DNA from: Planctomycetota bacterium
Lineage (GTDB): Bacteria > Planctomycetota > UBA1135 > UBA2386
NCBI GenBank assembly: GCA_965223545.1
Contig: OZ245006.1
Coordinates: 4,992,001-5,056,000, forward strand
Direction: 5' to 3'
Length of the DNA stretch: 64,000 nucleotides
Position 1 is the stretch's first letter. Every line of letters begins with the position of its first letter. Below, piece by piece: positions 9,736 to 42,161 of the stretch. The position numbers and the translations under genes are program-made. The notes under the pieces are model-generated. The model worked only from the letters and a program-made list of their open reading frames with translations, made no database searches and was not told the origin of the DNA.

Positions 9736-10287
9736 TCAGCCGTCGCGCGTGAACACGTCGCGGGTCTGGGTCTCCACGTGGCACTGCTGGCAGCGCACCC
9801 GCTCGGGGTGAGGGCACCGGATCTCCTCGCGAGCCGCGGGACCGGTGTGGCAGGCGGCGCAGTTCTCGCGCAGCAGAACCTGGTGCGGGATCACCGGCGG
9901 GGCCAGCGGGTTGAGGCGCTCGCCGGCGCGCAGGTCCTGCTCCAGGCCCGCGAACGCGCTCTTGACCAACACCGCGTCGGTATGGACGAAGACGTGGCAC
10001 TGCTCACAGCGGGCGAACGCGCTGGGGCCGTCGGGCTGGGCATGCGGCGACGGAGGCGCGAACCCGACGCCAGGCACCGCGGTGCCAGTGTCGGTGTGGC
10101 AGGAATCGCACGCCGCGCCCATCGCCGGGTGGGGGATCACCGGTGGCGCGCCGTCGAACGCGCGGCGCGTGGCGCGCACCGTCGCCTCGGTCTTGATCGC
10201 GGCGGTCGGCTGTCCAGGCGTGGACGCCTCTTCGGCGCAGCCACCGAGCAGGGCGATGATCAGGCTCGCTGCACTGAGACCGCGCAT
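9736..10287 (-). CDS. napB: NapB-like cytochrome c lipoprotein, tetraheme (duplicated NapB module)
   Basis: Lipobox LLGGC; RRAFDGAPPVIPH and a second PPVIPH; CDSCH, CEQCH, CAACH, CQQCH; overlaps the napA 3' end. Confidence 0.82.
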   Translation of the reverse strand: MRGLSAASLIIALLGGCAEEASTPGQPTAAIKTEATVRATRRAFDGAPPVIPHPAMGAACDSCHTDTGTAVPGVGFAPPSPHAQPDGPSAFARCEQCHVFVHTDAVLVKSAFAGLEQDLRAGERLNPLAPPVIPHQVLLRENCAACHTGPAAREEIRCPHPERVRCQQCHVETQTRDVFTRDG

Positions 10288-12620
10288 TTCTTGTAGTCCG
10301 GTTCTTTGGAGATGCAGTCCATCGCGTCGAGCGTCAGCTCGTTGATCAGCGAGCTCTCGTCGAAGAACGGCACGAAGACGGTCCCGCGCGGCGGCTTGCC
10401 GCGCCCGTCGACCACCGCGGGCAACGTCATTTCGCCGCGGCGGCTGGTCAGCTTGACCTGGTCCCCGCCGTTGATGCCCAGCGCCGTCGCGTCGGCGCGG
10501 TTGAGCTCGACGTAGGTGCGCGGCACCGCCTGGTGCAGCTGGGTGACGCGGCGCGTCATCGAGCCCGTGTGCCAGTGCTCCAGCACTCGGCCGGTGCACA
10601 GCCAATACGGATACGCGTCGTCAGGCACCTCGGCGGGCGGGTGGTACGGCCGCAGCCAGATGGCGGCCTTCTCGCCGAACTTCTTCGCCTTGTAGAAGTG
10701 CACGCCCTCGCTCTTCTTGACGAACGGGTCGTGGCCGGCGGCGTAGCGATACCGGGTCTCACGGCCGTCGACCACCGGCCAGCGCAGGCCACGGGTCTTC
10801 TTCAGATCCGCGTAGCTGGCGAGGTCCTTGCCGAGGCCGAGGCCGAACGAGCGGTACTCCTCGAACATCGGCTCGTGCCAATCCGTCGAGCCGTCGGTCG
10901 GCCACGGGAACAGATGCCCCATGCCCATCCGCTTGGCGACCTCGATGATCTGCCACGCGTCTTCCTTGGCTTCGCCGGGAGGAGTCACCAGCTGGTTCCA
11001 CTGTTGCGTGCGGCGCTCGGAGTTGCCGAACACGCCCTCGCGCTCGACCCACGCGGCCGATGGCAGCACCAAGTCGGCGACGTCGGTCGTCGGCGTCGGA
11101 TAGATGTCGCTGACCACGACGAAGCGGCCGTCGCCCGGCTTGCGCTCGAAGCGGTGCAGGTTGGGCATCGTCACCCATGGATTGGTGACCTGGATCCACA
11201 TGGCGGTGACATCGCCACGGCTCAGTGCGCGGAACATGTCGACCGCGTGGTAGCCGGGCACCGGGTTGATCGTGCCGGGCTCCAGGCCCCAGATCTCTTC
11301 GGCCTTGGCCCGGTGGGCGTCGATCGTGACCAGCATGTCGGCCGGCAGGCGGTTGCTCAGCGTGCCGACCTCGCGGGCCGTCCCGCACGCGGAAGGTTGG
11401 CCGGTGAGACTGAACGGTCCCGAACCGGGGCGGCTGATCTTGCCGGTGATCAGGTGCAGGTCGTTGATCAGGTTGTTCATCCACGTGCCGCGCACGTGTT
11501 GGTTGACGCCCATGCACCAGAGGCTCACGGTGCCGCGGTTGCGGTCGCCGTAGACCTCGGCCAAGGCCTCGAGCTGGCCCTGCGACACGCCGGAGAGCTC
11601 GGCGACGCGCTCCGGTGTGTACTCGGCAACGAAGGCGCGAAGATCGTCGAGGGTCGCTGGCGTCCCCTTGTCCTTGAAGCCGTAGCGCTCGGCCTGCTCG
11701 CCGTAGCAGCCGTAGCCGATCTCCTCGACGTCCTCGATGCCGCGCATGAAGACGCAGTTGTCCTCGACGAAGCGCGTGTCGATGGCGTTGTTCTTCAGCA
11801 GGAGGTGCAGGATGCCGTTGGCGATGGCGAGGTCCGCGCCTGGCGCGAACTCGACGTAGAGATCGGCCCAGTCCGACGTCGGCGTCCGGCGGGTTGCCAG
11901 GTCGATGATGCGCACGCCGCCGTTGCGCCGCTTGTTCTCCAGGATCCGGCTGAACAGCACCGGGTGCATCTCGGCCATGTTGTTGCCCCAGAGCACGAAG
12001 TCGTCGCCGAGGTCGAGGTCGTCGTAGCACCCCATCGGCTCGTCGCTCTGGAACTGCGTCATGAAGCCCATCACCGCGCTCGCCATGCAAAGCCGCGCGT
12101 TGGGATCGATGTTGTTGCTGCGCATACCGCCCTTGACCCACTTCAGAGCGGCATAGCCGTCGAACACGGTCCACTGGCCGGAGCCGTAGACCGCGACCGA
12201 TTCGGGGCCGCGGCTGTCGAGGGCGCCCTGGAACTTCTCGGCGATCAGATCGAGGGCCTCGTCCCAGCCGATGCGCACGAGCTTGCCGTCGCGCCGCAGC
12301 TGCGGGTACAGCAGGCGGTCTTCGCCGTAGAGCATCGCGGGCAGGTGGTAGCCCTTGACGCACAACAGCCCCTTGTTCACCGGGCTCTGCGCGTCGCCGC
12401 GCACTGCTTTGACCTGGCCGTCGGCCACGCCGACCTCGACGCCGCAGCCGGTGCCGCAGTAGCGGCACGGCGCTTTGCCCCAAGTCAGATCGGCGTGCTT
12501 GCGCTGCGGGTCCTGGGCGGCCACCTGCCGGGCGCGTTCGCGGTCGCGCGGTGAGAACGCGACGACGCCCGGTGCCACGATGCCACTCTTGAAGAACGCG
12601 CGCCGGTCGATGGCGGCCAT
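10260..12620 (-). CDS. napA: Periplasmic nitrate reductase catalytic subunit (Mo-bisPGD, 4Fe-4S)
   Basis: Tat motif DRRAFFK; CRYCGTGC...LCVKG; YGSGQW; NARLCMASA; FSLTGQPSACGTAREVG; EHWHTGSMTRR; EPDYKKCAV. Start ATG 12620. Confidence 0.95.
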   Translation of the reverse strand: MAAIDRRAFFKSGIVAPGVVAFSPRDRERARQVAAQDPQRKHADLTWGKAPCRYCGTGCGVEVGVADGQVKAVRGDAQSPVNKGLLCVKGYHLPAMLYGEDRLLYPQLRRDGKLVRIGWDEALDLIAEKFQGALDSRGPESVAVYGSGQWTVFDGYAALKWVKGGMRSNNIDPNARLCMASAVMGFMTQFQSDEPMGCYDDLDLGDDFVLWGNNMAEMHPVLFSRILENKRRNGGVRIIDLATRRTPTSDWADLYVEFAPGADLAIANGILHLLLKNNAIDTRFVEDNCVFMRGIEDVEEIGYGCYGEQAERYGFKDKGTPATLDDLRAFVAEYTPERVAELSGVSQGQLEALAEVYGDRNRGTVSLWCMGVNQHVRGTWMNNLINDLHLITGKISRPGSGPFSLTGQPSACGTAREVGTLSNRLPADMLVTIDAHRAKAEEIWGLEPGTINPVPGYHAVDMFRALSRGDVTAMWIQVTNPWVTMPNLHRFERKPGDGRFVVVSDIYPTPTTDVADLVLPSAAWVEREGVFGNSERRTQQWNQLVTPPGEAKEDAWQIIEVAKRMGMGHLFPWPTDGSTDWHEPMFEEYRSFGLGLGKDLASYADLKKTRGLRWPVVDGRETRYRYAAGHDPFVKKSEGVHFYKAKKFGEKAAIWLRPYHPPAEVPDDAYPYWLCTGRVLEHWHTGSMTRRVTQLHQAVPRTYVELNRADATALGINGGDQVKLTSRRGEMTLPAVVDGRGKPPRGTVFVPFFDESSLINELTLDAMDCISKEPDYKKCAVSVQRA

Positions 12621-14203
12621 CACTTGCCCTCCTGCAGCCAGCGATGCTCCGGCCGCGCCAAAATGCCGTCGATCACCGCGCGCACCGCGTTCGCGGCGTC
12701 GGCGTTGCCTTCCTCCTCGGCGTGGTCGGCCAGCTCCCGAGCCTGTGGGATCAGCTCTTGGTAGAAGCGCTCGGCGACTTCGTACATGCCGTGCCAGTGC
12801 GCGTAGTCCGGCGCCATCATCGATGCGCCGTGCCGCGCGCGGCGACCCTCGTGGTGCCATAAGTAGAACCACGTCCACTCGATCTCTTCGTCGAAGCTGG
12901 TGGCAGTCAGCAGCTCCTGCTCGTGGAGGGCGGCGATGATCGCCTGCCCGGGCTTGGCGAACTTCTCGTTGTAGAGCACGACGAAGTCGTCGTACTGCTT
13001 GTAGAACGCGTCGACGTAGTCGCCGGTGTGGCAGTGGGTGCAGACTTGCCGCATCCGGTCGCGCTTGTCCTGCCAGGAGTCGGCGATCAGGCCACGGCGC
13101 TTCTCGGGGTCGGTCTCGCGCACGACCTTGTGGTTGATGTCGGTGTCCATCACCGCACTGATCGGCGGGCGATTGGTCCAGGAGATGCGCATGCCCGGGT
13201 CGTGCGTGATCTTGCCGCCGTTCTTGCTGTGGCCCGACAGGTGACACGTGGCGCAGGTCGGTGCCTGTGAGTAGTCCTGACCCAGCACCCACGAGTCGCC
13301 ATCCATGTTCATGTGCGCTTCGAGGTCGCGGTAGGCGGCGCCGTGCTTGGATTCCTCGTAGATCTCCTTCTGCGGGTGGTCGGGGCCGAGGTGGCACTTG
13401 CCGCAGTTCTCGGGCCGCCGCGCGCGGCGCGGCGAGAAGTCGTGCCGGCTGTGGCACGCCGAGCAGGAGCCGAGCGAGCCGTCGAGGTTGATGCGGCCGA
13501 TGCCCGTGTTGGGCCAGGTCTCCGGATGCAGCAACGGCTTGCCGTCGCTGCTCTTCTGCACCCGTGCCACCGCGTCGAGGTTGGTCGGCCGGCCGTCGGC
13601 GTCGGGTTGGAAGTCGTCGAGGGTCAGCTGCGAGCCGTCGGTCGCCTGCAGCGCCACCTTGCTGCCGTGACACTGCTTGCAGCCCAAGAACGCGCTGGCC
13701 ATGCCGTTGACCTGCTGCACGTCCGGCCGCCCGGGCGTCTCGCTGTGCGGGTCGAATGGCACGCGGGCGCCCTCCACCGTCTCGGCCAAGAAGTTGTCGA
13801 GCGAGGCGAGGATGTTGCCGCCCTTGGCGTGGTGGCTGCGGCCGAACTCCTCGGCCTCGGTCACGTGGCAGCGGGCACAGTCGCGAGGCGTGACGATGGT
13901 CGCGATGTGGTAGCCCTCGTGCGCGAAGCCGTCGACGTCGTTCTCGTCGGCCGCGTGGCAGTCATAACAACCGACCCCGCGCTCGGCGTGGGTGCTGCCC
14001 TCCCACTGCTCGACGATGCCGGGGTTGGACTCGCGGTGGCAGGCGACGCAGCGCTCGGACGAGGCCGGCACCGCGACCGGTGCCGCGCGGAGGCCGACTT
14101 CGGCCTCGCGCCGCGCGACCTCCATGCCCTGCACGAAGATCAGCGACACCAGAAAGAGGATGCCGAGCGTGCCGATGATGATCTGTTTGGTCTTCAGCGT
14201 CAT
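12620..14203 (-). CDS. Octaheme cytochrome c, hydroxylamine oxidoreductase (HAO) family, likely reductive type
   Basis: 8 CxxCH (CVACH, CYDCH, CARCH, CKQCH, CSACH, CGKCH, CATCH, CTHCH); CHLGPDHPQKEIYEESKHG; MMAPDYAHWHG; N-terminal hydrophobic helix. Confidence 0.9.
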   Translation of the reverse strand: MTLKTKQIIIGTLGILFLVSLIFVQGMEVARREAEVGLRAAPVAVPASSERCVACHRESNPGIVEQWEGSTHAERGVGCYDCHAADENDVDGFAHEGYHIATIVTPRDCARCHVTEAEEFGRSHHAKGGNILASLDNFLAETVEGARVPFDPHSETPGRPDVQQVNGMASAFLGCKQCHGSKVALQATDGSQLTLDDFQPDADGRPTNLDAVARVQKSSDGKPLLHPETWPNTGIGRINLDGSLGSCSACHSRHDFSPRRARRPENCGKCHLGPDHPQKEIYEESKHGAAYRDLEAHMNMDGDSWVLGQDYSQAPTCATCHLSGHSKNGGKITHDPGMRISWTNRPPISAVMDTDINHKVVRETDPEKRRGLIADSWQDKRDRMRQVCTHCHTGDYVDAFYKQYDDFVVLYNEKFAKPGQAIIAALHEQELLTATSFDEEIEWTWFYLWHHEGRRARHGASMMAPDYAHWHGMYEVAERFYQELIPQARELADHAEEEGNADAANAVRAVIDGILARPEHRWLQEGK

Positions 14204-14252
14204 GTCAGGTCTAGAGGGGCAGTCGCGGAACCGCGGGGTGGCGCCGCCCACC

Positions 14253-15302
14253 TCAGTGGGCCGCGACCCCTTCCCATACGGTCAGGCCGACGATCGCGAT
14301 CACGCCGGCGATGCCGATCCACACCGAGGCCTCCGAGCCCGGCCAGCGCCGGCGGATCCAGCCATCGATGAACGGCCACAGGAACATCACGAACACGATG
14401 AAGCCCATGCTCAGGATCGCCGCCGTGGCGGAGAACAGCTTGAGCCAGCGGAACGTGACGTAGAAGAACCACTCGGGCTTGATCACCTCGGGCGTGCTCA
14501 GCGGATCCGCCCGCTCGCCCATGGCGGCGGGGAAGATCGTCGCCAGCGCGCTGAGCAAGATCATCAGCACCAGGCCGATGATCAGCTCGGTGTAGAGGTG
14601 GTCGGGGAAGAAGTTGAAGAAGCGGCGTTCTTCGCGAGGCGCTTTGGGGTCGCGGAACTCGGAGATGCCCTGCAGCCGGATCAGCGTGATGTGCACGAAC
14701 AGCAGCAGCACGATGGTCGCCGGCAGCACGGCGGCGTGCAGCACGTAGAAGCGCGACAGCGTGTGGGCGTTGTAGCTGTCGCCCGCCAGCATCATCTGCT
14801 TCATCCAGCCGCCGATCAGCGGCACCGCTTCGGTGATATTGGCGCCGACCGTGGCGCCCCAGTAGCTCAGCTGCTCGTACACCAAGCTGTAGCCGGTGAA
14901 GCCGGTCATCAGCGTGCACAGCAGCAAGCACATGCCGATCATCCAGTTGAGCTCGCGCGGCTTGCGGTATGCCCCGGTGAAGTACACCCGCATCTGGTGC
15001 AGGATGACCGCGGCGATCATCAGCGTCGCCGCCCACTTGTGCAGGCTGCGCACGTACCAGCCGTAGGCGGCTTCGTGCGTGATGTAGTCGACCGATTGGT
15101 AGGCCGTGGCCGGCGCTGCCTCGTAGTAGAACGCCAGCAAGATCCCGGTCAGGATCTGGATGACGAACAGGTAGAGCGGCGTTCCACCGAGGCAGAACCA
15201 CCAGCGCTTGAGATGGTTGGGGACCGGCTCGTTGGTCAGCTCGCGCAGCTGGTCGCCACTGATCGGGACCCGCTCCCGAAACCATGCGGAGAGTCCGGTC
15301 AT
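14253..15302 (-). CDS. Cytochrome b of a Rieske/cytb complex, b6-type fused to subunit IV
   Basis: WFCLGG (heme ci Cys position), RSLHKW...LHQMRV, SYWGATV, RFYVLH-x14-H, IKPEWFFY (PEWY-like Qo motif). Confidence 0.93.
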   Translation of the reverse strand: MTGLSAWFRERVPISGDQLRELTNEPVPNHLKRWWFCLGGTPLYLFVIQILTGILLAFYYEAAPATAYQSVDYITHEAAYGWYVRSLHKWAATLMIAAVILHQMRVYFTGAYRKPRELNWMIGMCLLLCTLMTGFTGYSLVYEQLSYWGATVGANITEAVPLIGGWMKQMMLAGDSYNAHTLSRFYVLHAAVLPATIVLLLFVHITLIRLQGISEFRDPKAPREERRFFNFFPDHLYTELIIGLVLMILLSALATIFPAAMGERADPLSTPEVIKPEWFFYVTFRWLKLFSATAAILSMGFIVFVMFLWPFIDGWIRRRWPGSEASVWIGIAGVIAIVGLTVWEGVAAH

Positions 15303-15304
15303 GA

Positions 15305-15895
15305 TCAGGCTTGGGCGTCGAAGCGGTGCCGCAGGCAGGGGTCGTGGCCGGGCCCCTCGTCCGGGCCTCCGGTGTCGTCGGCGCGGGCGAGGCGTTCGAC
15401 GGGGACCTGCACGTAGAGCAGGCCCTCGACGACGCGGAGCGGGTAGCTCGCCAGACGTTGGCCGGCGTCCGCCGGTGGACCTGCAGTCGCGACCCCGTCG
15501 GGCGAAAACACACCGTTGTGGCACGGGCAGAAGAAGCGGTTGTGCTGCGGTTGCCAGTGCACCTGGCAGCCGAGGTGCGGGCAAGTGCTCGACAGCGCGA
15601 CGAAGTCGTCCGCGCTGCCTCCGCTGCCGCGCCGCGCGACGTTGACGGTGGCTCCCTGCGGGGTCCGATAACGCATCGCTTGACCGACCTCGAGGTCGGC
15701 GACCCGGGCGACGTACTGCCAGGCCACCTGCCGCGAACGGGCGGGATAGAGGAAGCGGCCGGCGATCGCCGCGAACGTGCCGTAGCCGGCGATCAACCCT
15801 CCCGCCATCAGCGCCCCGGAGGCCAGGGTGCGGCGATCGGTACTGGGATCGGGCGAAGCCTGGGGATGGGGCTCTTCGGCAGGCGGTTCGTGCAT
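15305..15895 (-). CDS. Rieske [2Fe-2S] protein
   Basis: STCPHLGC and FCPCHNGVF boxes; DRRTL plus hydrophobic segment (Tat-like anchor). Start uncertain (15895 or 15943). Confidence 0.92.
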   Translation of the reverse strand: MHEPPAEEPHPQASPDPSTDRRTLASGALMAGGLIAGYGTFAAIAGRFLYPARSRQVAWQYVARVADLEVGQAMRYRTPQGATVNVARRGSGGSADDFVALSSTCPHLGCQVHWQPQHNRFFCPCHNGVFSPDGVATAGPPADAGQRLASYPLRVVEGLLYVQVPVERLARADDTGGPDEGPGHDPCLRHRFDAQA

Positions 15896-15979
15896 GGGGG
15901 CTCTCGATCCTAACCCCCTGGTGCCGCCGCTTCTTTCACTCATTCGGCGCCGCGAGCCGGTGGCCGGCGTGGCTGCCGC

Positions 15980-16639
15980 TCACCTTCCGCGCGGCGGGCG
16001 GGTGTCTTCGGCCGCTGGCACACGAAAGCCGCGGATCAGGTCCTGCTCAACCGGCGAGTGCTCGGCGACGAGCTCGATCGCGCGTTGATACAGCATGCGG
16101 TGATCGTCGTGGCGGCGCGCGTTCTGCAGCGCGCGGCCGACCTGGTCCGCGCTCGGTGGAGTGACGCCCGCCGAACGGGCGACCCCGATCTCCCGCTCGA
16201 TGACGCGCCAGTCGACGCGCTCCGGCATCATCGGCGTGCCGAAGAAGATCTCCGCCTCGGTGAGCTGGAAATCGCCGGGCACGATCGCCACCACGCGGCC
16301 CGAGTCGGAGCCGTTGTTGACGCGCTCGGCCGTTTGCCCGCCCACGTAGAGCACGGGCTCCTCGGTTTGGCGGGCGAACACCAGCGTCGGATCGACGCTG
16401 AGCACGACCAACCAACCCGAGTCGTAGAGCGGGCGCTCGGCGCGCCAGAAGTGCGCCTGGGGCTTGCCCAGATCGAAGCGCTCGGCGTGCAGCAGGCCGA
16501 CGCCGATGCGGTGCGGTTGATCGGGGATCGGCGGCGGATGGTCGCGATCGGGTCCGCCGCGGTCGACGACGGCGCCGGTTGGGGTGACGGCGAGCGCGGC
16601 CGCGACCGCGATCAACCCAAAGAAAAGGGTCTTCTTCAT
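15980..16639 (-). CDS. Secreted hypothetical protein
   Basis: Clear signal peptide MKKTLFFGLIAVAAALA; GGAG upstream; follows the hydrolase gene by 14 bp. Confidence 0.75.
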   Translation of the reverse strand: MKKTLFFGLIAVAAALAVTPTGAVVDRGGPDRDHPPPIPDQPHRIGVGLLHAERFDLGKPQAHFWRAERPLYDSGWLVVLSVDPTLVFARQTEEPVLYVGGQTAERVNNGSDSGRVVAIVPGDFQLTEAEIFFGTPMMPERVDWRVIEREIGVARSAGVTPPSADQVGRALQNARRHDDHRMLYQRAIELVAEHSPVEQDLIRGFRVPAAEDTRPPRGR

Positions 16640-16653
16640 CGTTCCACTCCGTG

Positions 16654-19110
16654 TCAGCGCACCGTCAATTCGATCTCGTCCAGTCCGATGCGGCCCTCTG
16701 GCGAGCCCCAGCTCGGACCGAACTGGAACACGATCTGCCGCACGTCGGCGAGGTCGATCGCGTTGCCGTTGTTGAGGAAGTCGGTCAGCCGCAGCCGAAT
16801 CGTCTCGAACTCGTTGTTCCAGCCGGGGACCGCACCGATACAGCTGGCGCAGCCTGCTGGCGGTGGGTTGGTCGTGCGCTGGTAGGGTTCTTCGATGCCG
16901 CCGCCGTAGGCGCCGATGTTCATCGAGCTCTGCGCCCCCGTGCCGTCGACCAACGTGACGAAGAATCTCAGGTCTTCGAGGCGCGCGGTGGTCAGCGGAT
17001 GGCGCGTGGTCTGCGCTGCGCGGAAGGACAGGTGGTCGAACGCGTGCAGGTTGCGCTGGCCCGCCGGCAGCGAGTAGGTCAGGTGATAATCGCCGGTGCC
17101 GTCGAAACCGAGCACCGCACCTGCACTCGTGTCGAACGCGCTCGCCATGATGAAACCGTTCATCGGATCGGTGGGCAGCGCGTCGAAGCCGAAGTCGCCA
17201 TCGTCGTATCTGCCCTCGAACAGCTCGGGCAGATCACTGGTGACCGTGGCTCCCGAGCTCGCCAGCGCGACGCCGGCGCCGCTCTGGAAGTCATCGATGA
17301 TGTGCTTGCCGCTGTCCGGCGACTCCTGAAACTGGAGGTTGACGATGTTGCACTCGCCAAACGGCACGCCGATCGGACGAAAGCGGTCCCACTGCCGCCA
17401 CAAGAAGTCTTTCGACGGCACGTCGCCGCGCACGTGGTACTCGACCAACGGGAGCACGTAGCCGAGCATGATCTCGTGGGTCTTCGGTTCGTCGAGCTGG
17501 CACGGACCGGTGACCCATGGGTTCTGGTTGGTCTGCGCGTGGAACCAGCCGTGGCCCACGCCGTAGAGGCTGATCGACTGGCGCGACTTCTGCGCGCGGT
17601 CGTGCATGATGTACCACTGCTCGCGGTCGCGGCACGCGCAGCCGGGGACGTTGCTGTCGGCGACCCCGACCCACAAGTGGTAGGGGACCGCGTGTGGGTT
17701 GGAGCTGGACGGGCCGCCGTCTTGCACCGGGGCGATGCTCGACAGCAGCACGATGTCGCTGGCGTCGTAGTTGGTCATCGTCATGGTGCCGTCGATCAGC
17801 TGGTCGTAGGCGCGGACGATGCTGTCTCCACCACGGCTGTGGCCGATCCAGACGATGGTGTCGCCGTCGACGTGACCGGCGAGCACACCGCCGCCGATGG
17901 TGGCCAGGCTGCCCAGGAACGCGTCGGTGTTGTCGAGCGTCGTCAACGAGGCGGTCAGCGTGCCGGGGATCGTGTTGTTGCTGTGGCTCATCACCACGTA
18001 GCCGTAGGAGGCAAGGTGGTAGCCCAGGTGGTCGTACCACTGGTAGTTGTGGCCATTGCCGTGGCTGATCGCGATGAGCGGTAGCTGGCCGAGCTGGGCG
18101 ATGTTGGTCGGGTAGTAGACGTCCTGGCGGAGGAAGGTCGTTGGGCTGCCGGCGACCGGAACCCACGTCGCGCCCAGGTCGTACTGGATCTCGGTCACCG
18201 CGTACGGGCCGCCCGCTCCGGTGCCGGGCCCGACGCGCGTGGCGGGTCCGACGCTGCCGACGGTGGTGTCGCGCACGATGTAGAAGCCGGCTTCGCGGTC
18301 GCTGTAGCCGTCGGCGAGATCGGTGCCGTTGAAACGACCGTCTCGGTTGAAGTCGATGACGATGTCGTAGGGGACGCCGATGCGCAGATCGCCGTTGCCC
18401 GGGGTCACGTCCGGGCCGGCGAGGGTGCCCGCGTCGAGCGTGACGGTATTGGCCTGGATCGTCCCGGCGGCAAACGTCACCGCCTGCGGGGCGCCGCGCA
18501 CGTCGGTCAGGGTGTCATCTGCCAGCCACTGGCTGCGCGTCTTGGATGCGACCACGTAGACGTCGGCGGTGTTGCCGACGATGAACGGGTAGCGGGTCGG
18601 ATCGATGCCCAGCTGGAGAGAGCTGCCGGCGTTGACGGCGGCGACGTGTTGGAAGTGCGGAAACAGGCGCATCGAGCGGCCGGCCAAGTCGATGTCGCGA
18701 TCGCGCAGGGTCAGGTCGGCGCCGTTGCTGACGTCGAGACCGAAGGGGGCGCTCGGATCGGCAATGACCGCGACGGCGAACACTTGCGCGCCGGCGAGGC
18801 CGGGAAACGATGGCAGCGGCAGGGCGAGCGACAGGTTGCCGCCGGCGTCGGTTTGGCCGAGAGGCAGAACCGCGAGCGCCGGGGTGAAACCGAGCGGCAC
18901 GCTGACGCCGAACACGACCGTCGGACCTGCGGACACGTCGAGGAGCAGCGTGACGGGTAGGTTGGCGCCGCCGCTGACGTCGATCTGCAAGCGATCGCCC
19001 ATCAGTTTGACCACCGTGGTCCGCCCGTCGAACTTGAGGTCGGACGCCGGCAGTGGGGTTGCGAACGCCGCCAACGTGTACGGCAGAAGCGAGAGCAAAG
19101 TCGAGCGCAT
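16654..19110 (-). CDS. Large secreted alpha/beta-hydrolase-fold protein
   Basis: Signal peptide at ATG 19110 (GAGGAG upstream); ISHGNGH, HLASYGYVV, IGHSRGG nucleophile elbow. Confidence 0.8.
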   Translation of the reverse strand: MRSTLLSLLPYTLAAFATPLPASDLKFDGRTTVVKLMGDRLQIDVSGGANLPVTLLLDVSAGPTVVFGVSVPLGFTPALAVLPLGQTDAGGNLSLALPLPSFPGLAGAQVFAVAVIADPSAPFGLDVSNGADLTLRDRDIDLAGRSMRLFPHFQHVAAVNAGSSLQLGIDPTRYPFIVGNTADVYVVASKTRSQWLADDTLTDVRGAPQAVTFAAGTIQANTVTLDAGTLAGPDVTPGNGDLRIGVPYDIVIDFNRDGRFNGTDLADGYSDREAGFYIVRDTTVGSVGPATRVGPGTGAGGPYAVTEIQYDLGATWVPVAGSPTTFLRQDVYYPTNIAQLGQLPLIAISHGNGHNYQWYDHLGYHLASYGYVVMSHSNNTIPGTLTASLTTLDNTDAFLGSLATIGGGVLAGHVDGDTIVWIGHSRGGDSIVRAYDQLIDGTMTMTNYDASDIVLLSSIAPVQDGGPSSSNPHAVPYHLWVGVADSNVPGCACRDREQWYIMHDRAQKSRQSISLYGVGHGWFHAQTNQNPWVTGPCQLDEPKTHEIMLGYVLPLVEYHVRGDVPSKDFLWRQWDRFRPIGVPFGECNIVNLQFQESPDSGKHIIDDFQSGAGVALASSGATVTSDLPELFEGRYDDGDFGFDALPTDPMNGFIMASAFDTSAGAVLGFDGTGDYHLTYSLPAGQRNLHAFDHLSFRAAQTTRHPLTTARLEDLRFFVTLVDGTGAQSSMNIGAYGGGIEEPYQRTTNPPPAGCASCIGAVPGWNNEFETIRLRLTDFLNNGNAIDLADVRQIVFQFGPSWGSPEGRIGLDEIELTVR

Positions 19111-19255: not shown

Positions 19256-22150
19256 TCAGCGCGTCGCCGGCCAGTCCAGCACCTGGTCGTCGGCCAGTAG
19301 CTCGGTGCGCAGCGTTGCATAACCAACGTCTTGCAGCGCGATGTCGTCCGGCATTGCCAACGCGATCGCCACTGCCGCGCTGTGACCCAGCACCATGAAC
19401 ACGGGCTCCATGCGGATCGATCCGAACGCGATGTGGCTGGCCGACAGGCAGACCGGCACCGCCAAGTTGGTGCACTCCTCGCGCGCGGGCACGATGGCAC
19501 GGTAAGAGATGCCGTAGGGAGCGAAGCCACCGACCTGCACGTCGCCCTCGTTGCGCACGGTGCCGTCGGCGGTGACGTAGCGCTGCACGTGGTGCGAGTC
19601 CATCGTGTAGGCGGCGAGCCCGACCGGGTCCTCGACGCGGCGCGCGCCGCGGCAGTGGTGCTCGGTCATCACGACTTCGCCGACCATGCGTCGTGCCTCG
19701 CGCACGTAGAGCTGGTGTGGCCAGTGACCGTTGTCGACGAACTCGTCCTTGGCGAGTCCCCAGGTGTTGAAGTGGGCGCGCACCTGCGGTGGTACGCGCG
19801 GGTCGTTGGCCAGAGTCCAGAGCAAGCCCTGCTGGTAGGCGGCGTGATCGCGGACGATGCGCGCGCGGGTGGCCGCGTCGGCCTCGGGGTAGGCGTGGTT
19901 GGCGCCGATGTGATCGGTGGAAACGGCGAAGTTGTTGTTGCTGTCGGTCTTGCGGTTCGGCATCGCCACCGGGTGCCACGGGATGCGGTGGTCGCCGGCT
20001 TCGAAGTTGCGCAACAGCAGCTCGTAGCGCTTGGCGTCGTAGCCGGCGGGCTTCGGCCATGGCACGCGGTTCTCCGGCACGTCGGTGGCGCAGATGCGGA
20101 AGCAGTAGGCCTGCACGCGGTCGTCGCCGGTGCCGTCCTCGCCCGGCGGATCAGCTTGCACGCCGGGCAGGAGTCCACTGTCGGGATTGCCGGGCTCGAT
20201 CCACGGGTCGACCGCATGGGTGAACTGGTGGTGGCGGGCATGCGCGGTCTGCACGCCGTTGAGGGTCTCGTCGTAGGTGCGGTTGGCCTCGCGGCCGACG
20301 GTGTACGACACGCCCGCCGCCGCCATCAGGTCGCCTTCGTAGCTGGCATCGATGAACGCACGGCCGGTGAAACGGGTGCCGCTCCGTGTGCGGAACGCGC
20401 GCAGCCGGTCTCCCTCACGCTCGACGCCGCCGTCGCGGTCGAGTTGCTCGTCGAAGAACAGCGTGGCGTCGGTCTCGGCCAGCATCGCGCGCAGGATGCG
20501 TTCCGCGACGTGCGGTTCGAAGGTCCACGCGGCGTCCTCCTCCGGCCGGTGGCCGCGGCCGCGGAACTCCTCGCGGCGCTGCCAGGTCCACGCCGCGTCG
20601 TCGGCGTAATGCGCCCGCACGCGCCGGTAGAACTCGCGCGCGATGCCGCCGATCGCCGCCTTGTTGCCGATGTCCGTCGCGCCAAGCCCGCCGCTCGTCA
20701 GCCCGCCGACGTGCTGTCCCGGCTCGACCAGGGCGACGCGCAGGCCCCGCCGGGCCGCGGCGACGGCGGCGGCGACGCCGCCGGCAGTGGCGCCGTAGAC
20801 GACGAGATCGTGCTGGTGTTGGTCGCCGCCCGGCGCTGGCAACGCCATGGGCTGCGCGTCGCGGTCGACTTGGCCGGCGAGCAAGCCGTGGAGCTGGCGC
20901 AACAGCTGCGGCCGACTCGCGGCGAGGTCGTCGCGCTCACCGGGATCCGCGGCCAGGTCGAACAGCGCGAACGGGCCGTCGCCACGATTGCGCAGAATCT
21001 TGTGGTCACCGTGCCGCAGTGCGAGCCGGGAGCCCCACTTCCAGTACAAGGTGCGCGGCGCGGGGTCTCGATCCGCAGCGCTGAGCCATGGCCAGACGTC
21101 TTGCCCGTCCAGGGCTTCCGGTGTCTCCGTCACCCCGGCGAGCGCGGCCAACGTGGGCAGCCAGTCGACGGCGTGCATCACTTGCCGGCAAACGCCCGGC
21201 TGCAGAGTGCCGCGCCAGTGCGCGAACGCCGGTACGCGCATGCCCCCCTCGAACACCTCGGTCTTCCAGCCGCGTAGTGGTCGGTTGCTACTGACGACTT
21301 CCAGCGCGGAATCCGGTGGCGGATAGGCGTTGCCGCGATGCCGGCGCAGGCCGCCGTTATCGCTGGTGAAGACGATCAGCGTCTGCTCGCGCAGATCGTG
21401 CTCGTCGAGCGCGGCGACGACTCTGCCGACCGCGGCATCCAGGTGCGACGCCGCGGCCGCCAGCAACCGGCGATCCGGGTGCTCGATGTGGGCATTGGCC
21501 CGGACCCAACGCTGCGGCTCGACCAGTGGCGTGTGCACCGCGTGGTAGGGGAGATAGACGAAGAACGGCTGGTCCTTGTGCGCCTCGATCCACTGCACGG
21601 CTTCGTCGGTGCACAGGTCGGTGACGTGCCCGGTCTGCTCGAGCCACTCACCGTTGCGGTGCCAAGTTCGTGCGAACGGGGTGTCGAGTCGGTAGCGGTG
21701 GTCGTACATCCCGACTGCCCCCGCCAGCGAACCATGCGCGTGCTCGAAGCCGTAGTGGTTGGGACCCCACTCGGGCTTCGACCCCAAGTGCCACTTGCCG
21801 GACAAGAACGTCGCATAGCCGCGCGCGCGCAGCAGCGACGCCAGCGTCTCCGTGCCGGCGGGCAGCGCCCGTTCGTTGGACGCCGTGGTGCAGTGATCGC
21901 CGAACCTGCTCGGATACCGCCCGGTCAGCAGAGCGACCCGCGTCGGCGTGCACTGCGGCTGCACGTAGTGCGCATCCAGCTCGACCCCTTCCGCGACCAG
22001 CGCATCCAGCGTCGGCGTCCGCATCTCCTCCGCATGCCACCCGACATCCGCCCACCCCAGATCATCCGCCACCACCACCACGATGTTGGGCGGCCTCTCC
22101 TGCACGACCGGCGCCAGCAACGCCAGCGCCACAATCGAAAAGCCAAGCAC
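19256..22150 (-). CDS. Fusion: formylglycine-type sulfatase + FAD-dependent oxidoreductase
   Basis: PNIVVVVADDLGWAD, CTPTR, GKWHLG, SDNGG; then VVYGATAGG, GGLTSGGL, IDASYEGDL, LYVREARRM, GSIRMEPV. Start likely GTG 22150, because the longer ORF start runs through a repeat. Confidence 0.88.
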   Translation of the reverse strand: MLGFSIVALALLAPVVQERPPNIVVVVADDLGWADVGWHAEEMRTPTLDALVAEGVELDAHYVQPQCTPTRVALLTGRYPSRFGDHCTTASNERALPAGTETLASLLRARGYATFLSGKWHLGSKPEWGPNHYGFEHAHGSLAGAVGMYDHRYRLDTPFARTWHRNGEWLEQTGHVTDLCTDEAVQWIEAHKDQPFFVYLPYHAVHTPLVEPQRWVRANAHIEHPDRRLLAAAASHLDAAVGRVVAALDEHDLREQTLIVFTSDNGGLRRHRGNAYPPPDSALEVVSSNRPLRGWKTEVFEGGMRVPAFAHWRGTLQPGVCRQVMHAVDWLPTLAALAGVTETPEALDGQDVWPWLSAADRDPAPRTLYWKWGSRLALRHGDHKILRNRGDGPFALFDLAADPGERDDLAASRPQLLRQLHGLLAGQVDRDAQPMALPAPGGDQHQHDLVVYGATAGGVAAAVAAARRGLRVALVEPGQHVGGLTSGGLGATDIGNKAAIGGIAREFYRRVRAHYADDAAWTWQRREEFRGRGHRPEEDAAWTFEPHVAERILRAMLAETDATLFFDEQLDRDGGVEREGDRLRAFRTRSGTRFTGRAFIDASYEGDLMAAAGVSYTVGREANRTYDETLNGVQTAHARHHQFTHAVDPWIEPGNPDSGLLPGVQADPPGEDGTGDDRVQAYCFRICATDVPENRVPWPKPAGYDAKRYELLLRNFEAGDHRIPWHPVAMPNRKTDSNNNFAVSTDHIGANHAYPEADAATRARIVRDHAAYQQGLLWTLANDPRVPPQVRAHFNTWGLAKDEFVDNGHWPHQLYVREARRMVGEVVMTEHHCRGARRVEDPVGLAAYTMDSHHVQRYVTADGTVRNEGDVQVGGFAPYGISYRAIVPAREECTNLAVPVCLSASHIAFGSIRMEPVFMVLGHSAAVAIALAMPDDIALQDVGYATLRTELLADDQVLDWPATR

Positions 22151-24379: not shown

Positions 24380-27300
24380 TCACCAGCCGGCGCCGAGCCC
24401 GCTCGCGTCGCTGAACAGCGCAGGCGGCACCGCCGGTGCGCACATGCCCGCGTCGTCGGAGGTCACCGGGTCAGCCGGCAGGACCGTCCCGCCGTTGGCC
24501 AGCGGTGTGCACGAGGTCAGCAGGTTGGTGCCGTCGACGCCCGCGGTGCTCCACGCCGTTGCCAGCACCAGCGTGTCGGCTCCGAGCAGCGCGACCTGAC
24601 CGCCGAACGAGCGGATCTCGTTGATCCCGCCCTGCGCGTTGCCGGCCATGCTCACATCGACGACCGGCATCTGGCGCGCCTGCGGACCCGGAACCGGCGT
24701 GCTGTTGATCGCGCCGCTGGCAAACAGGTTGATGTCGAGTGCGGCCCACAACCGGTTGACCGCGCTCGCATTGTCGTGGTTGACGTTGTCGAACGCGCGG
24801 TCGGCCGCCACGATACGGCCGCCGAGCGAGCGGATGTCGATCTGGCCGCCACCGTGGTTGCCGAGCATCTTCACGGCGATCGTGCCGGGGTTGGGGAATG
24901 CGAAGTGCTGGATCGTGTTGCCCAGCACGACGATGTCTCCCTGCGCCTGCATTTCGATGCGGCCCGGATCGGCGATGTTGTCGCGGTCGGTGCGCACCAC
25001 GACGCCCGTTGTGCTGATCCGCCGCCCCTGCACGGCGACTTGCTTGAGCGTCGTGCCGGTGACCGTGATCTTGCCATCGAACGAGGCGACGCGAATCGCC
25101 GGGGCCGGCGCCGCGCGGTAGATGGCTTCGACCAACCCGTTGATCGAGATGTCACCCCCGCGCCCAGCGGCCGCGTCACCGCCGGTCAACACATGGACGT
25201 CACCGCCGGCATCCGAGCGCACCAGGCCAGTGACGGCCAGCTTGACGTCGCCGCAACGCGAGGCGATCAAGATGCGGCCCGAGCGGCCGTTGGCGGTCTG
25301 CGCGCGGTTCACGACGACGCCCCGAAGGTCGATCTCGCCATCGGCGATGATCTCGAGATCACCCGCCTGTGCGTTGTGCGCGTGCACGTCGATCGCCGCA
25401 TCGTCATCCAGGAACACGGTGCAGCTGGTCTGCACGCGAACCCCCGGCGCCGGCCGTTGCTTGCCGCGGGTCGCCACGGTGCCGGTCGTGATCGTCGCGC
25501 CGTCGATGACCTCGAGACGCTTGGTGCCGGTGTCGACGATCAGGCGCCAGGTATCCGGCGTCGGACCGCTGGTGTCGAACGACACGTACGGCGCGAGTGC
25601 GGGGTCGCCCTGCCAAGTCGGCGGCGAAGTGTTGAAGTCGGCGACCAAGTCTTGATCGATGCGGACGACGTCACCGTCGCAGTCAGGGCACGTGCCGAGC
25701 ACCGTCAGCACGCCGGGATTGCTGGCGACGGTGCCGGCGGCATTGCTCACCTTGGCGGTGTAGCGCCCGGCATCACCGTTGTTCACCGACGCCAAGAAGA
25801 GCGTGCTCTGCGTCTCGCCGGTCAGCGGGATCCCGTCCTTGCACCACTGGTAGCTCAGGTTGCTGCCGCTCGCCACGACCGAGAGCGTCACGTCGGCTCC
25901 AGCCGCCACGGTCTGGTCCTGCGGATGACTCAGGATCTGCGGCAATGCGGGCACCGCGGTCACCGTCACCGCGGCCATCACGGTCTCGCCAGTCGGGCTG
26001 GTGACCGCTAGCACGTAGAGCGTGTTCGCGTCAGGCGGAGGCGTCACCGTGACCGGCACTTCGCTGGTCACCGGGATCGGGCCGGGCGTGATCACGCCTT
26101 GGCCCCCGGAGAACCGCGCCGTCAGCACGGAAGTCTCGCCATTGATGACGAGCGTCGGCGAGGCCACAAAGCTCTCGATGTTCGGCGGGGGCACTGCCTG
26201 GACCGAGACGACGGCCTGGACCGAAGCGCCGGCGGGGTTGGTGACCACCAACGTGTAGGTAGTGGTGGCATCGTCGGGCGGCGTCACCGAGAGCGAGACT
26301 CCGCTCGAGACAGCTTGGCTGGTGACGCCATCGCTCAGCTGCCCGGTGCCGTTGGCGAAGACGAACGCCAGGTCCACCGCGGTCCCATTGGTGACGATGC
26401 TCGCCGAGCTCGTGAAGCTGGTGATCACCGGCAGGGGATACGAGGTCACCGCGGCCGTTGCCGTCACCGCGACACCGGCGCCATTCGTGACGGTCAGGGT
26501 GTAGGCGGTGGTCGCTCCGGGTGTCGGAGTGACGGTCACCGCTTGGCCCGACGTCACGGCACCGACGCCCTGGTCGATCACGCCCGTGCCGCCGCTGAAC
26601 ACCGGGACCAGCGTCACGGTGTCGCCGTCGGAGACGATGGATGGCGTCGCGTCGAACGAGAGGATCACCGGCGGTGGTTCGTCCACGGTGATGTATCCGG
26701 CGCGTGTCGCGGTATCGGTGCCGCCCGGGCCGGACACGGTCAGCGAAACCGAGTAGGTCCCCGGCGTCGTGTAGACGTGCTGCGGGGAGCTGGCGGACGA
26801 GGCGCTGCCGTCGCCGAAGCTCCACGACCAAGCGGTGATCGCGCCGCTCGACTGGTCAGTGAACGACACCGCGAGCGGAGCCGGGCCAGATGTCGGAGTG
26901 GCCGAGAACGCCGCCACCGGCGCCGGGTCGACGATGGTGATGTAGCCGTTCTTGGTCTCGGTGCTCGCGCCGCACGCGCCGGTCGCGGTCAACGAGACGT
27001 CGTACGGGCCGGGTGCCGCGTAAGTGTGCACCGGGTGTTGCGCCGTCGACGTGGTGCCGTCGCCGAAGCTCCACAGCCAGCTGTCCACCGTGCCGGTCGA
27101 CAGGTCGGTGAACGACACCATGAGTGGGGCGCTACCGCCGACGAGGTCGCTGGTGAATGCTGCCTGCGGAATGGCCTGCACGGTCAACACCGCCGGCTGG
27201 CTCTGCACGCTGCCACCCGGGTTGGTCACCAGCACGTCGTAGCTGCCGGCGTCCGTCGTACTCACCGGGCTCAAGCTCAAGCTCGGCGTGGTTGCGCCGG

Positions 27301-30300
27301 CGATGTCCGTTCCGTCCTTGCGCCACTGGTAGCCGATCGGCACGGCGCCGCTCGCGGCGACCGAGAACGTCGCCACCGCGCCTTCGCAGACCGTGAGGTC
27401 CTGTGGTTGCGAGGTGATCGTCGGCGGATCCGGCAGCACCTCGACGTGAGGAGTCGGTTCGCCGCAGCCGGTCTCGATGTTCAGCCGCAAGACTTGGCCG
27501 CTGACCAGAGAGATCATGTCGAACGTCGCTTGGCCGCTGGTGCCGGGGTCGAGGTCGCCCAAGTCGACTGCCGCGGCCGTGATCTGGCCGCTGGACCCGT
27601 ACGAGAGCGTGGCTTCGGACTGTGTCGGGGCCAGCGCGCATTCGACCAAGTTGTCGGAGTACACGTTGACCCGGACCAGGTTGGCGACCGTTGCGCCTTG
27701 GTTGGTCACCGTCACGCCGAACGGGAAGCTGCCACCGGCGGTCACCGAGGTCGGGGTCTGGAAGTCACAGGCGAGCAGCGGAAGGGTGACGACGAACGCG
27801 TCACTGACCGCGGCCGTGGCGATCGACGACAACAGCGTGCCGAAGCCGTAGAGGTCACCGTTGGTCGTCGCCGACACGGCGTAGGTGCCGGGCTCGTCAC
27901 CGCGGACCACCCACGATGCCTGGTCCACGTCGCCGGCGTCGAGGTCGGCGAGGGTTCGAGTCAGACTCTGCGGAACCCCGTCGAGATCGGGCAGACCGAG
28001 GCCACCGGGCAGCGCGTCGAGCGCGACCGTGACGTTGCGCAGCTGGACATCGGTCGGGTCCTCGGCGTCCGAGCGATTGACCACCACCATGGTGACGTCG
28101 TAGAAGCTCTTCAGCGTCCAGATGTCGCCCGCGATGATCATCCACGTCTCCGTGCGGCGGCCGCCGCCATGGAAGTCGAGGATGCCGAGCAGCATCTTGT
28201 CACCGCCTCCCCCGGGTGGCTGCTGCACTTCTCGAGAGATGGTGATTCGGGTTGGCGTGGTGTAGTTGGTGCGCGGTACCTCGACGTTCGTCGCGATGAT
28301 CGGATCGCCGATCTCCATCGCCACGACGAAGTCGACGATGTGGTTGTTGATGGGGTCGTTGATGTTGACCCCACGCGCCTGAACCTCCGCCGAACTCAGC
28401 GGCTGCGGCGTCACGGCCGCGACCTCGAGCGTCGCGCCGGCGGTCAGCGGGATCTCGACCGTGCTGGCACCGTCCGGCACCAAGAACGTGCGAGAAACCG
28501 CGAGGTAGCCTTGCTTGTAGGCGGCGACACCGCGCGCGCCCGGAGGCAGGTTCACCGTGACTTCGCCGGTTCCGTCCGTGGAGACCACGCCCGGAAGGTC
28601 CTGGAACGAGACCAGGCCACCACCGATGACGGCGCTCGTACCGGCGTCGACCAGGCGAACCGTCAGCGAGGCTGCCGGCTGGTCGAACAGCTTGACGTCC
28701 AGGGAGCCGCTGAAGATCCCGGTCGCGGTCGCGACATCGACCGAGATCGGGTGGACGTCGGGCTGACCGCCGAGCGGCGGCGCCGGCGTGCCGGGGGGCA
28801 CACTCAGATCGGCGAGCACTGCGACGGACTCGCCGGGCGCCAGCGTGACGCCGGACAGATCGGTGACCAGGCTCAACCAGCTGCTGTTGGTCGTGGCTTG
28901 CGTGATGGCGGTCGCCCCGGCGCCGGTGTTCTGCACCGTCAGGGTGACCGAAGCGTTGTCGCCCGGGTACGACAGGCGCTCACCGCCACTGATGCCCAGT
29001 TGCTCTGGTGGTGCGTCCACCGCGACCAGGAGCGCGGCGCGGTTGTCGCCCGGCGTTGCTTCTGGCGGGGTCTGGTTGACGACGACCGCGAACAGGTTGT
29101 GCAGGCCGGGCGCGCCCGGCGTCCACGGCAGGCCGTAGGTCGCGGTGTCACCGACACCGATCACACCACCGGTTTGGCCGAGCAGCACGCCGCCGAGGTC
29201 GGGGTCGCCGCGGTAGAGCTGTACCGCGGCGGTTGCGTTGATCTGGCCCCCGTTCTTGACCGCGATCGAGACCTGAGTGGCGATTCCAGAGCTCGGGCTC
29301 GCGGGAGTGACCGAGATCGCGTCGGCGGGCAACGCCAAGTCCGAGTGGAACGGGATCACCGCCAGGACGTGCGGCAGCGATGCCAGGCTGGTGCTGTCGA
29401 ACGCCAAGTCGACCGTCTGCGGGGTGTCGAATACCAGGTCGCCGAAGGTCGCCACTCCGTTGTTGGGCACCTGGCTGGTGGTGCCACCGAGCGTGCCGAG
29501 CACGTTTGCCGCGGCGAGGGTGACCGGATCGACGGCCTGAGTGACGACGTTGTCGTAGACGTCGACCACCTGAACCTGGATGGCCGGGACGATGGCGTCC
29601 TCGCTGGCCACCGCCGGTGGCGGCGTGGCGAACTGGAGCGTTGCGGCGGCTGCCGCTTCGACGGTGATCGGCGCGGAGCTGGCCGGCAGCAGTCCGCTCG
29701 CACTGGATGCGTCGAGCGCGATGACCTCTGCCTTCGTGTACGAGATGTCGGAGAAACTCGCGACACCGTTGTTCGCGATCGCGGTCAGGGTGCCCCACAG
29801 CGTGTCCGTGCCGCTGGCCAGACTCAGGGTGATCGTCTCACTGGGGGCTGTCGACGCGAGGTTGCCGAGCTGGTCGCGGATCTCGACCGAGAAGCTGTCG
29901 AACACGACGCCGGCCGTTTGCGTCGGCGAAGGATCGACGAACACCAGCTGCGTGGGCGCCGCGGCCTCGACCGTCACGGGTGCGGTGACGACGTTGGTGC
30001 CGCCGAGTCCCGCGGCGGCGCACGCCACCGTCACCGATTCCGCGGTGTCATAGGTCAGTGAATCGAAGGTTGCGATGCCGCCGACCGCGTTGATCTGCTG
30101 GTCGCCGTTGAGTGTGCCCGTGCCGCCGTTGATCGAGACCGCGACCAGGTCCGTGTAGCTCGTGACCAAGTTGCCGTAGGTGTCCTCGATCCGCAGCGAG
30201 AACGCCGGCCAGACTCCGCCAGCCGTCACCGGCGAAGCCGGCGGTGTGTCGAAGAGGAGGTCCTGCGGGGCGGCCGCCTCGACAGTGACGAGATTGTCGA

Positions 30301-37534: not shown

Positions 37535-37536
37535 GC

Positions 37537-38871: not shown

Positions 38872-38898
38872 TTGTGTTCTCCGTGCGCGGAAGGGGAT

Positions 38899-39912: not shown

Positions 39913-39933
39913 CTGTCGTCCTCTCTCGTCTGC

Positions 39934-41960: not shown

Positions 41961-42161
41961 CGAGGGGCGGACAGGGTACGGAGTCATCGGCCGCCAGCAA
42001 GCGCGATCCTCTATGGATGCCGAAGAGAATGTCAAAACTGGATTCTCGGTGGAATCTCAACCCGGATATGCTTGAATCACGGCGGTGAAGGGCGTCCCCC
42101 CGTGCGGCGGGGGCGGCCGACACAGAACTAGATTCTGACCAGTATTTCAAAACCGCTCCGC

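Follow-up and report, generated by a model that had tools for sequence, protein, structure and literature searches.

A planctomycete operon of Rieske/cytochrome b, octaheme, NapA and tandem NapB genes as a candidate quinol-driven nitrate/nitrite reductase module

The closest described counterpart of the operon discussed here is a locus of Caldithrix abyssi (Cabys_2564-2556), which holds napM, napA, napG, napH, Rieske/cytochrome b genes and an octaheme Hao without the cross-linking Tyr (PMC5317091; what we say of published systems refers to the portions of the cited papers available to us). Our operon lies in a 64,000-nucleotide stretch of DNA, hereafter the window, from a Planctomycetota bacterium (assembly GCA_965223545.1, contig OZ245006.1, positions 4,992,001 to 5,056,000), and its five genes encode a Rieske protein, cytochrome b, an octaheme cytochrome of the HAO family, the periplasmic nitrate reductase NapA, and a tetraheme cytochrome. 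The two loci, which we compared by description only, have in common NapA, a tetraheme partner (NapM in Caldithrix), Rieske/cytochrome b and a Tyr-less octaheme, and neither has NapC or NrfA. Moreover, the Caldithrix paper already puts forward this electron flow and a proton-motive role, so that the wiring put forward in the first-pass annotation of the window is not new; Qcr-dependent Nap is likewise on record for Campylobacter jejuni (PMC6195509). Caldithrix, however, retains NapG and NapH, which leaves the donor of its Nap ambiguous, while the present operon has five genes, another gene order, and no NapGH or NapD. What NapM and the operon tetraheme share, again as judged by description, is a count of four hemes and a location next to napA (PMC5317091, PMC5276818).

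In Nitrospira, a Rieske-cytochrome b-octaheme set has been interpreted as an assimilatory nitrite reductase supplied by quinol (PMC6606698, PMC12342949, PMC5767232). Its ONR-petBC genes follow the same Rieske-cytochrome b-octaheme order (PMC6606698), but they sit with glnA, amtB and glnK and have no NapA attached, a linkage absent from our operon. The sole pointer to orthology between the octaheme and Nitrospira ONR is an Atlas feature match, and no named Nitrospira or Caldithrix protein was among the 120 homologue matches listed. In C. jejuni, deletion of qcrABC abolishes Nap-dependent growth, and electrogenic nitrate reduction from menaquinol has been proposed (PMC6195509); there, however, the complex is a general QcrABC with a diheme QcrC, NapGH is still needed, and there is no dedicated octaheme-bearing complex. 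Clusters of nap and hao without nrfA are described for Deferribacter and Thermosulfurimonas (PMC6896113, PMC5276818). Reductive HAOs, such as Kuenenia HAOr (PDB 6H5L), the Ignicoccus octaheme (PDB 4QO5) and epsilon-Hao, resemble our octaheme in having eight CxxCH motifs and no cross-linking Tyr, but are distant from it: identity to the HAOr-like paralogue of the anammox genome G121 is 31%, and the operon clade has a membrane anchor and a Met at position 462. The Rieske/cytochrome b operon of the same anammox genome (L142), presumably that of the bc3 complex with its hexaheme and octaheme, likewise ends in a Trp-type octaheme, but has additional genes for an NAD(P)H-oxidoreductase-sized protein and a hexaheme, and no Nap. 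Orthology of the two octahemes was considered and rejected, as they are 24% identical and fall into separate clades in a quick tree with SH-aLRT support only. Our literature search found no paper on the exact five-gene operon, most subscription papers being outside its reach, and the available portions of PMC8840924 and PMC10732223 contain nothing on it.

The operon occupies window positions 9736..15895, with all five genes on the minus strand (Table 1). The coordinates bear out the tight co-directional packing noted in the first-pass annotation: Rieske and cytochrome b genes are separated by 2 bp, cytochrome b and octaheme genes by 49 bp, the octaheme stop and napA start overlap by 1 base, and napA overlaps the tetraheme gene by 28 bp. 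The Rieske gene could alternatively start at an in-frame ATG at 15943. The absence of napC, napG/H, napF and napD from the window was also correctly noted: among the 43 called open reading frames (ORFs), Pfam scans, which covered 33 + 10 of them, yielded no member of the napC, napG, napH, napF or napD families, the ferredoxin motif CxxCxxCxxxC occurs in 0/43, and CxxCH occurs in just two. Neither were amtB, glnK or glnA seen in Pfam scans of the window. A promoter/terminator scan gave results no better than chance: 0 promoters, and one terminator-like site, located on the other strand. An FNR-like motif has 19 one-mismatch matches in the window (6.55 expected); no match is perfect, none lies ahead of the Rieske gene, and they were not used as evidence.

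Table 1. Operon genes in the window, and features at related loci (L numbers are our locus handles)
Feature	Coordinates	Strand	Details
Rieske [2Fe-2S] subunit	15895-15305	minus	196 aa; PF00355 E 1.2e-10
Cytochrome b	15302-14253	minus	349 aa; PF00033/PF00032
Octaheme, HAO family	14203-12620	minus	527 aa, 8 CxxCH; PF13447
NapA	12620-10260	minus	786 aa; NCBIfam equivalogs
Tetraheme, tandem NapB	10287-9736	minus	183 aa, 4 CxxCH; weak NapB match
Barrel-flanked loci	L007:6814-8073, L030, L035, L038, L049, L051, L054, L068, L072, L079		
Globin/Hcp loci	L011:9488-9892, L032, L074:9469-9927, L016:11727-13715, L018:10443-11726		
~190-aa protein loci	L035:9529-10083, L047, L052, L057, L058, L061, L075, L084		Atlas matches <0.9

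Comparison was made with the best 80 of 592 confirmed GTDB stretches (598 screened; at least 592 exist) and with a sample of 301 Planctomycetota genomes, this one included, which are 85-100% complete and mutually related. Cytochrome b lies upstream of the octaheme in 79/80 loci (73/73 with room for it), Rieske in 62 of the 63 with room, and napA is found downstream in 41 of the 69 with room. The complete five-gene order is found in 36/80 loci, a few with small inserts, indicating that the order is not due to chance, and the napA start is no more than 62 bp from the octaheme stop in 39/45 loci. Judging by GTDB record titles, from which the seemingly mislabelled L008, L017, L028, L034 and L039 were left out, the five-gene form is present in Planctomycetota, Gemmatimonadota, Acidobacteriota, Eiseniibacteriota and Krumholzibacteriota. 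In the phylum sample, the octaheme was found at 64% identity or more in 44 genomes, with one gene split in two. Eighteen of these carry a NapA at least 70% identical, which adjoins the octaheme in 17; in G154 the two genes are on separate contigs, with napA starting at the contig edge. Two more have another NapA type, and 24 yielded no NapA match at E<=1e-150. Together with the presence of napA after the core in 41/69 loci, these 24 genomes indicate that the core is a three-gene unit. Thus the five-gene order presented in the first-pass annotation as a Nap module does recur, but the unit is Rieske-cytochrome b-octaheme, and Nap is an optional add-on.

One locus (L127, G275:C55:126000-145000) joins the same core to a different Nap, made up of a diheme, a NapG-like ferredoxin, a gene resembling NapD and a divergent NapA-like protein that stays below the cut-offs. 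Immediate neighbours in the 80 loci, surveyed as 77 ORFs, include 10 alginate-export-type barrels, 5 globins or protoglobins, 2 Hcp, 2 Rrf2 and 1 Crp/Fnr. The barrel stands beside many nap-bearing copies and is a candidate nitrate/nitrite channel; its 55% homologue in this genome lies away from the operon, at C1:3092446-3093840. In some planctomycetes, globin genes are located between cytochrome b and the octaheme, and Hcp after the octaheme, accompanied in L016 by a protoglobin.

The napA product is a NapA periplasmic nitrate reductase: it exceeds both NCBIfam equivalog cut-offs, TIGR01706 and NF010055 (960.8 vs 904 and 939 vs 930.55 bits), and has an N-terminal 4Fe-4S motif and a twin-arginine signal. 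Out of 45 related NapA N-termini examined, 44 have the twin-Arg motif, and 35 of those 44 a lipobox-like Cys. A twin-arginine translocation (Tat) lipoprotein signal is present in most relatives (L009-L084), and in the operon copy the lipobox Cys is replaced by Pro (window 12620-12540). The tetraheme, a lipoprotein, consists of two NapB-like diheme units in tandem: the series PPxIPH / CxxCH / PxxH / CxQCH occurs twice, and the halves are 33% identical (E 2e-8). The top PDB matches of its family profile are three NapB structures, 3ML1, 1OGY and 1JNI (E 9e-8 to 7e-6), and PF03892 is matched by 30/39 family members at E<=0.001; taken alone, the operon tetraheme falls below the Pfam cut-off (20.7 vs 25.1 bits) and gave no match in a single-sequence PDB search. 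The genes do not form a canonical Nap system (NapABC, or NapAGH with NapD), as no NapC or NapGH quinol dehydrogenase and no NapD chaperone was over cut-off or adjacent in this genome (8.1 Mb, 2 contigs, 91% complete). In eight Gemmatimonadota-titled loci the tandem NapB is followed by a conserved protein of ~190 aa without a Pfam match (Table 1).

The first two genes encode a Rieske/cytochrome b complex, as seen from the Cys/His boxes, the four heme-b His and the PEWY-type Qo motif. The Rieske protein begins with a Tat-like/membrane segment and carries the cluster boxes CPHLGC and CPCHNGVF; both boxes are present in 71/71 related ORFs, and the second ends in G-x-F in all of them, so that Gly and Phe replace the Ser and Tyr of high-potential Rieske proteins. 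Loss of the hydrogen bonds from this Ser and Tyr is a mark of low-potential, menaquinol-oxidising Rieske proteins, and by this rule the subunit would be of the menaquinol type. In cytochrome b, a b6-like N-terminal part is fused to a subunit-IV-like part, and the closest PDB matches are cytochrome b6. The heme-b ligands His88, His102, His189 and His204 and the PEW motif (PEWF in the operon copy) are invariant across 50 sequences. The Cys for heme ci (FCLGG) is present in the operon copy; among 72 relatives the column has Cys in 44 and Ala in 28. The last residue of cytochrome b (window 14253-14255 region) is His in 76/79 relatives (loci L007-L086; TxWEAxxxH) and adjoins the predicted octaheme anchor.

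The octaheme belongs to the HAO family according to its sequence and Foldseek matches. Its AlphaFold monomer has a mean predicted local distance difference test (pLDDT) score of 71.4, dropping below 50 at residues 248-324, and is poor in the heme core, and the matches to the HAO family (TM about 0.3, root-mean-square deviation about 20) are good for family assignment only; NrfA and TvNiR structures appear only at E>=1.5. The closest solved protein is 4QO5, annotated as a hypothetical multiheme protein. CxxCK, the mark of NrfA and of true ONR of the TvNiR type, is absent from the octaheme. In an alignment with HAO-family proteins of anammox-type genomes, Trp470 is found in 41/41 clade rows, at a column which we take to be that of the cross-linking Tyr of oxidative HAOs; HOX and HDH have Tyr there, as do the comparison proteins L148 (identical to PDB 4N4J), L139 and L140. 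The cross-linking Tyr of oxidative, P460-type HAO/HOX/HDH is thus missing. In the active-site Asp-His motif, His276 is kept in 41/41 clade rows, and Asp275 is invariant in 42. With eight CxxCH motifs, HAO homology, Trp in place of the cross-linking Tyr and the Asp-His pair kept, the octaheme looks like a reductive-type member of the family. Met462 (about 12818-12820) is invariant in 41/41 clade rows, while HOX, HDH and HAOr have His in this column, presumably the heme 8 ligand; it may mark a His/Met heme of higher potential. PDB 4QO5 also has Met in this column, but Val at the His276 position.

A hydrophobic segment at residues 8-26 forms the N-terminal membrane anchor, which is conserved in cytochrome b-linked octahemes and absent from the more distant ones, whether stand-alone with signal peptides or adjoining napA behind a DsrP/NrfD-type quinol oxidase. 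A complex model of cytochrome b with the octaheme reached an ipSAE of 0.63, the best of three control pairs giving 0.00; a score of 0.63 was attained by 116/157 solved pairs and 2/215 mismatched pairs. The partner pLDDT was at least 85. In the model, octaheme residues 1-36 face cytochrome b residues 93-109, 257-281 and 324-346, and the interface includes residues invariant on either side (Ser20 and Gln25 of the octaheme; Thr93 and Thr341 of cytochrome b). As modelled, the anchor helix would pack on cytochrome b and make the octaheme the c-type subunit, which supports the placement of the octaheme in the cytochrome c slot by the first-pass annotation.

NrfA was found in 3/44 octaheme genomes (G219, G027 and G089) vs 76/257 others, and four families (f24, f36, f52 and f57) have both NrfA and octaheme, never in one genome; kin genomes do not provide independent counts. 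NirK is present in 2/44 octaheme genomes and NirS in 1/43, and all three enzymes are missing from 38/44; NirK is rare overall (11/301) and too infrequent for a contrast. The siroheme reductase domain PF01077, found in 16/44 octaheme genomes and 116/257 others, is uninformative; the family also includes sulfite reductases. NapD was absent from all 18 five-gene genomes, vs 21/44 of the other NapA-matching genomes. Searches for NapG and the NapC domain, which ran over 37 chosen genomes, gave NapG-like matches in 2/18 five-gene genomes, below cut-off and far from the operon, and NapC-domain matches in 6/18, all weak, either in long frames or in NrfH beside nrfA. In the operon-bearing genome itself, NapD, NrfA, NapG, Hcp, NosZ and a siroheme nitrite/sulfite reductase domain were not found, and NirS gave no strong match; NapH is represented by four matches, all below cut-off, and the sole NapC-domain match over cut-off is weak and lies inside an unrelated 472-aa pentaheme of another cluster.

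The same genome has a nirK over cut-off adjoining a norC-norB-like cluster, as well as aa3- and cbb3-type oxidases, and the host would appear to be facultatively aerobic and a partial denitrifier. A second pair, of NorC-like and divergent heme-copper-oxidase-family proteins, lies at G000:C1:1050757-1052965 (L160) and has no NCBIfam match at E<=1e-8. Other large multiheme clusters, whose CxxCH motifs number up to 23, are located at G000:C1:4761147-4768590, 6212299-6223461 and 203863-205608.

On balance, we lean slightly towards reading the operon as a self-contained quinol-driven nitrate/nitrite reductase module, which would use menaquinol to reduce nitrate via nitrite to ammonium and would probably be proton-motive. 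Menaquinol would be oxidised at the Qo site of the Rieske/cytochrome b core, and the Rieske centre would pass electrons to the anchored octaheme, which may stand in for NrfAH and reduce nitrite, ammonium being the most likely product. With napA attached, electrons would reach NapA through the tandem NapB, via the octaheme heme chain or directly from the Rieske centre; membrane tethering would hold the parts together, and the b-heme branch would run a Q-cycle, making the process proton-motive. The potentials of menaquinol and nitrate are -75 mV and +420 mV (PMC6195509), and HAOs without the cross-link Tyr are reductases (PMC8042395). Individual parts of this scheme differ in strength: the Rieske/cytochrome b complex very probably feeds NapA, the octaheme probably acts as a nitrite reductase in vivo, a Q-cycle is rather likely to operate, and ammonium is a somewhat favoured product. 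The most far-reaching version, in which all five proteins would form one tethered respiratory assembly running nitrate to ammonium with a Q-cycle and without NapC, NapGH, NapD or NrfA, and in which the core would be a common NrfA substitute, is a tentative possibility.

Several observations weigh against this module. The main doubt is the product: purified Trp-type HAOr yielded only NO (nitric oxide) with a mild donor, and ammonium with methyl viologen (PMC8042395), and a Rieske centre is a mild donor. Deferribacter desulfuricans has napMADGH and hao and yet stops at nitrite (PMC6896113). The nirK and norCB genes give nitrite another outlet in this genome, which qualifies the HAO-type nitrite/hydroxylamine reductase of the first-pass annotation, otherwise in line with the reductive-type sequence. 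An alternative complex III (ACIII)-like cluster and a second Rieske/cytochrome b-c pair could also feed NapB. The heme-ci Cys is lost in 28/72 relatives. In the complex model, made with alignments of our own, the three runs gave 0.66, 0.04 and 0.63, so that two of three were high (run agreement at least 0%), and the confident interface is a single helix. One genome (G010) has a partial NapA of 72% identity and no octaheme match. Finally, since the genomes are 85-100% complete and related, the counts overstate independence.

In the best-surviving alternative, which we consider rather unlikely, the wiring would be the same and the octaheme would stop at NO, or mainly remove NO and hydroxylamine, serving partial denitrification or defence against nitrosative stress rather than ammonification. 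It draws on the behaviour of HAOr with mild donors (PMC8042395), on a Phycisphaerae survey suggesting that such octahemes replace NirK/NirS (PMC11266412), on norCB in this genome, and on the neighbour survey, with globins or protoglobins within the operon or next to it in 5 loci and Hcp and Rrf2 in 2 each. On the other hand, NirK is already present in this genome, the near-exclusion with NrfA fits a swap for an ammonifying enzyme, and a NorB-like match (E<=1e-40) occurs in 1/44 octaheme genomes, namely this one, in a test that is weak for qNor, three long-frame, qNor-sized matches lying right at the threshold (1e-41 to 1e-46).

Unlikely, too, is an operon that is not proton-motive, whether because the complex is a simple quinol dehydrogenase or because the nap genes are merely co-regulated and fed by other complexes. 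The variable heme-ci Cys, the additional bc complex and ACIII-like cluster, and some genomes in which napA and the core are apart (L056, G131) agree with it, but the invariant b-heme His and PEW motif and the short octaheme-napA distances in 39/45 loci speak against it. Less probable still is an assimilatory module supplying ammonium for growth from periplasmic nitrate or nitrite, as proposed for Nitrospira ONR-petBC, although it is compatible with the module we favour and can coexist with it. The Nitrospira ONR and its Rieske/cytochrome b are expressed with nitrite as sole nitrogen source (PMC6606698, PMC5767232), and a siroheme NirA/NirB-type domain is absent from this genome and present in 2/18 five-gene genomes; against it, Amt, GlnK and GlnA are absent from the 77 immediate-neighbour ORFs, and PF01077 shows no clear exclusion. 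Very unlikely is an octaheme that is mainly an electron wire substituting for cytochrome c1/f, or reduces e.g. a sulfur oxyanion, with NapA alone acting on nitrogen: its clade has no characterised member, the nearest solved structure is a hypothetical protein, and the model is poor in the heme core, but the Asp-His pair is conserved, 24/44 genomes have no NapA to wire to, and relatives adjoin napA behind a different quinol oxidase, the DsrP/NrfD-type module.

Several nitrate-ammonifying bacteria pose the still unanswered question of how nitrite becomes ammonium without NrfA (PMC5276818, PMC6896113), and a minimal operon without NapGH removes the donor ambiguity of the Caldithrix locus. This 6-kb unit bears on whether a dedicated Rieske/cytochrome b complex drives Nap, on the product of a Tyr-less HAO with its physiological donor, and on NapA maturation without NapD. 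In the literature found, we saw no description of how prevalent the core is, how nearly it and NrfA exclude each other, a NapA that is NapD-free and in most cases lipid-anchored, the tandem NapB or the predicted anchor site. The near-exclusive distribution suggests a functional marker absent from surveys of dissimilatory nitrate reduction to ammonium. If the core, found in 44/301 genomes vs 79 with NrfA, is indeed a common NrfA substitute, nrfA-based surveys would overlook a sizeable share of the capacity for nitrate ammonification.

Upstream of the operon in the window, at 15980-19110, are genes for an 818-aa secreted protein resembling alpha/beta hydrolases and for a 219-aa protein that matches no family; the pair is present three times in the genome. 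These two genes, and a downstream glyoxalase-like gene, were considered as operon parts and rejected after comparison with the 80 loci, where the 818-aa gene has a single weak match, and the pair has two further copies in the genome. Farther along the window are a fusion of a sulfatase with an FAD-dependent oxidoreductase domain (19259-22024), a 3441-aa secreted protein bearing PKD and Ig domains (24383-34705), a cluster for a 2-oxoacid dehydrogenase, comprising lipoyl synthase, two E1-alpha copies, E1-beta, E2 and E3 (34902-41987), and an IS110-family transposase within a polysaccharide biosynthesis region (51335-52492).

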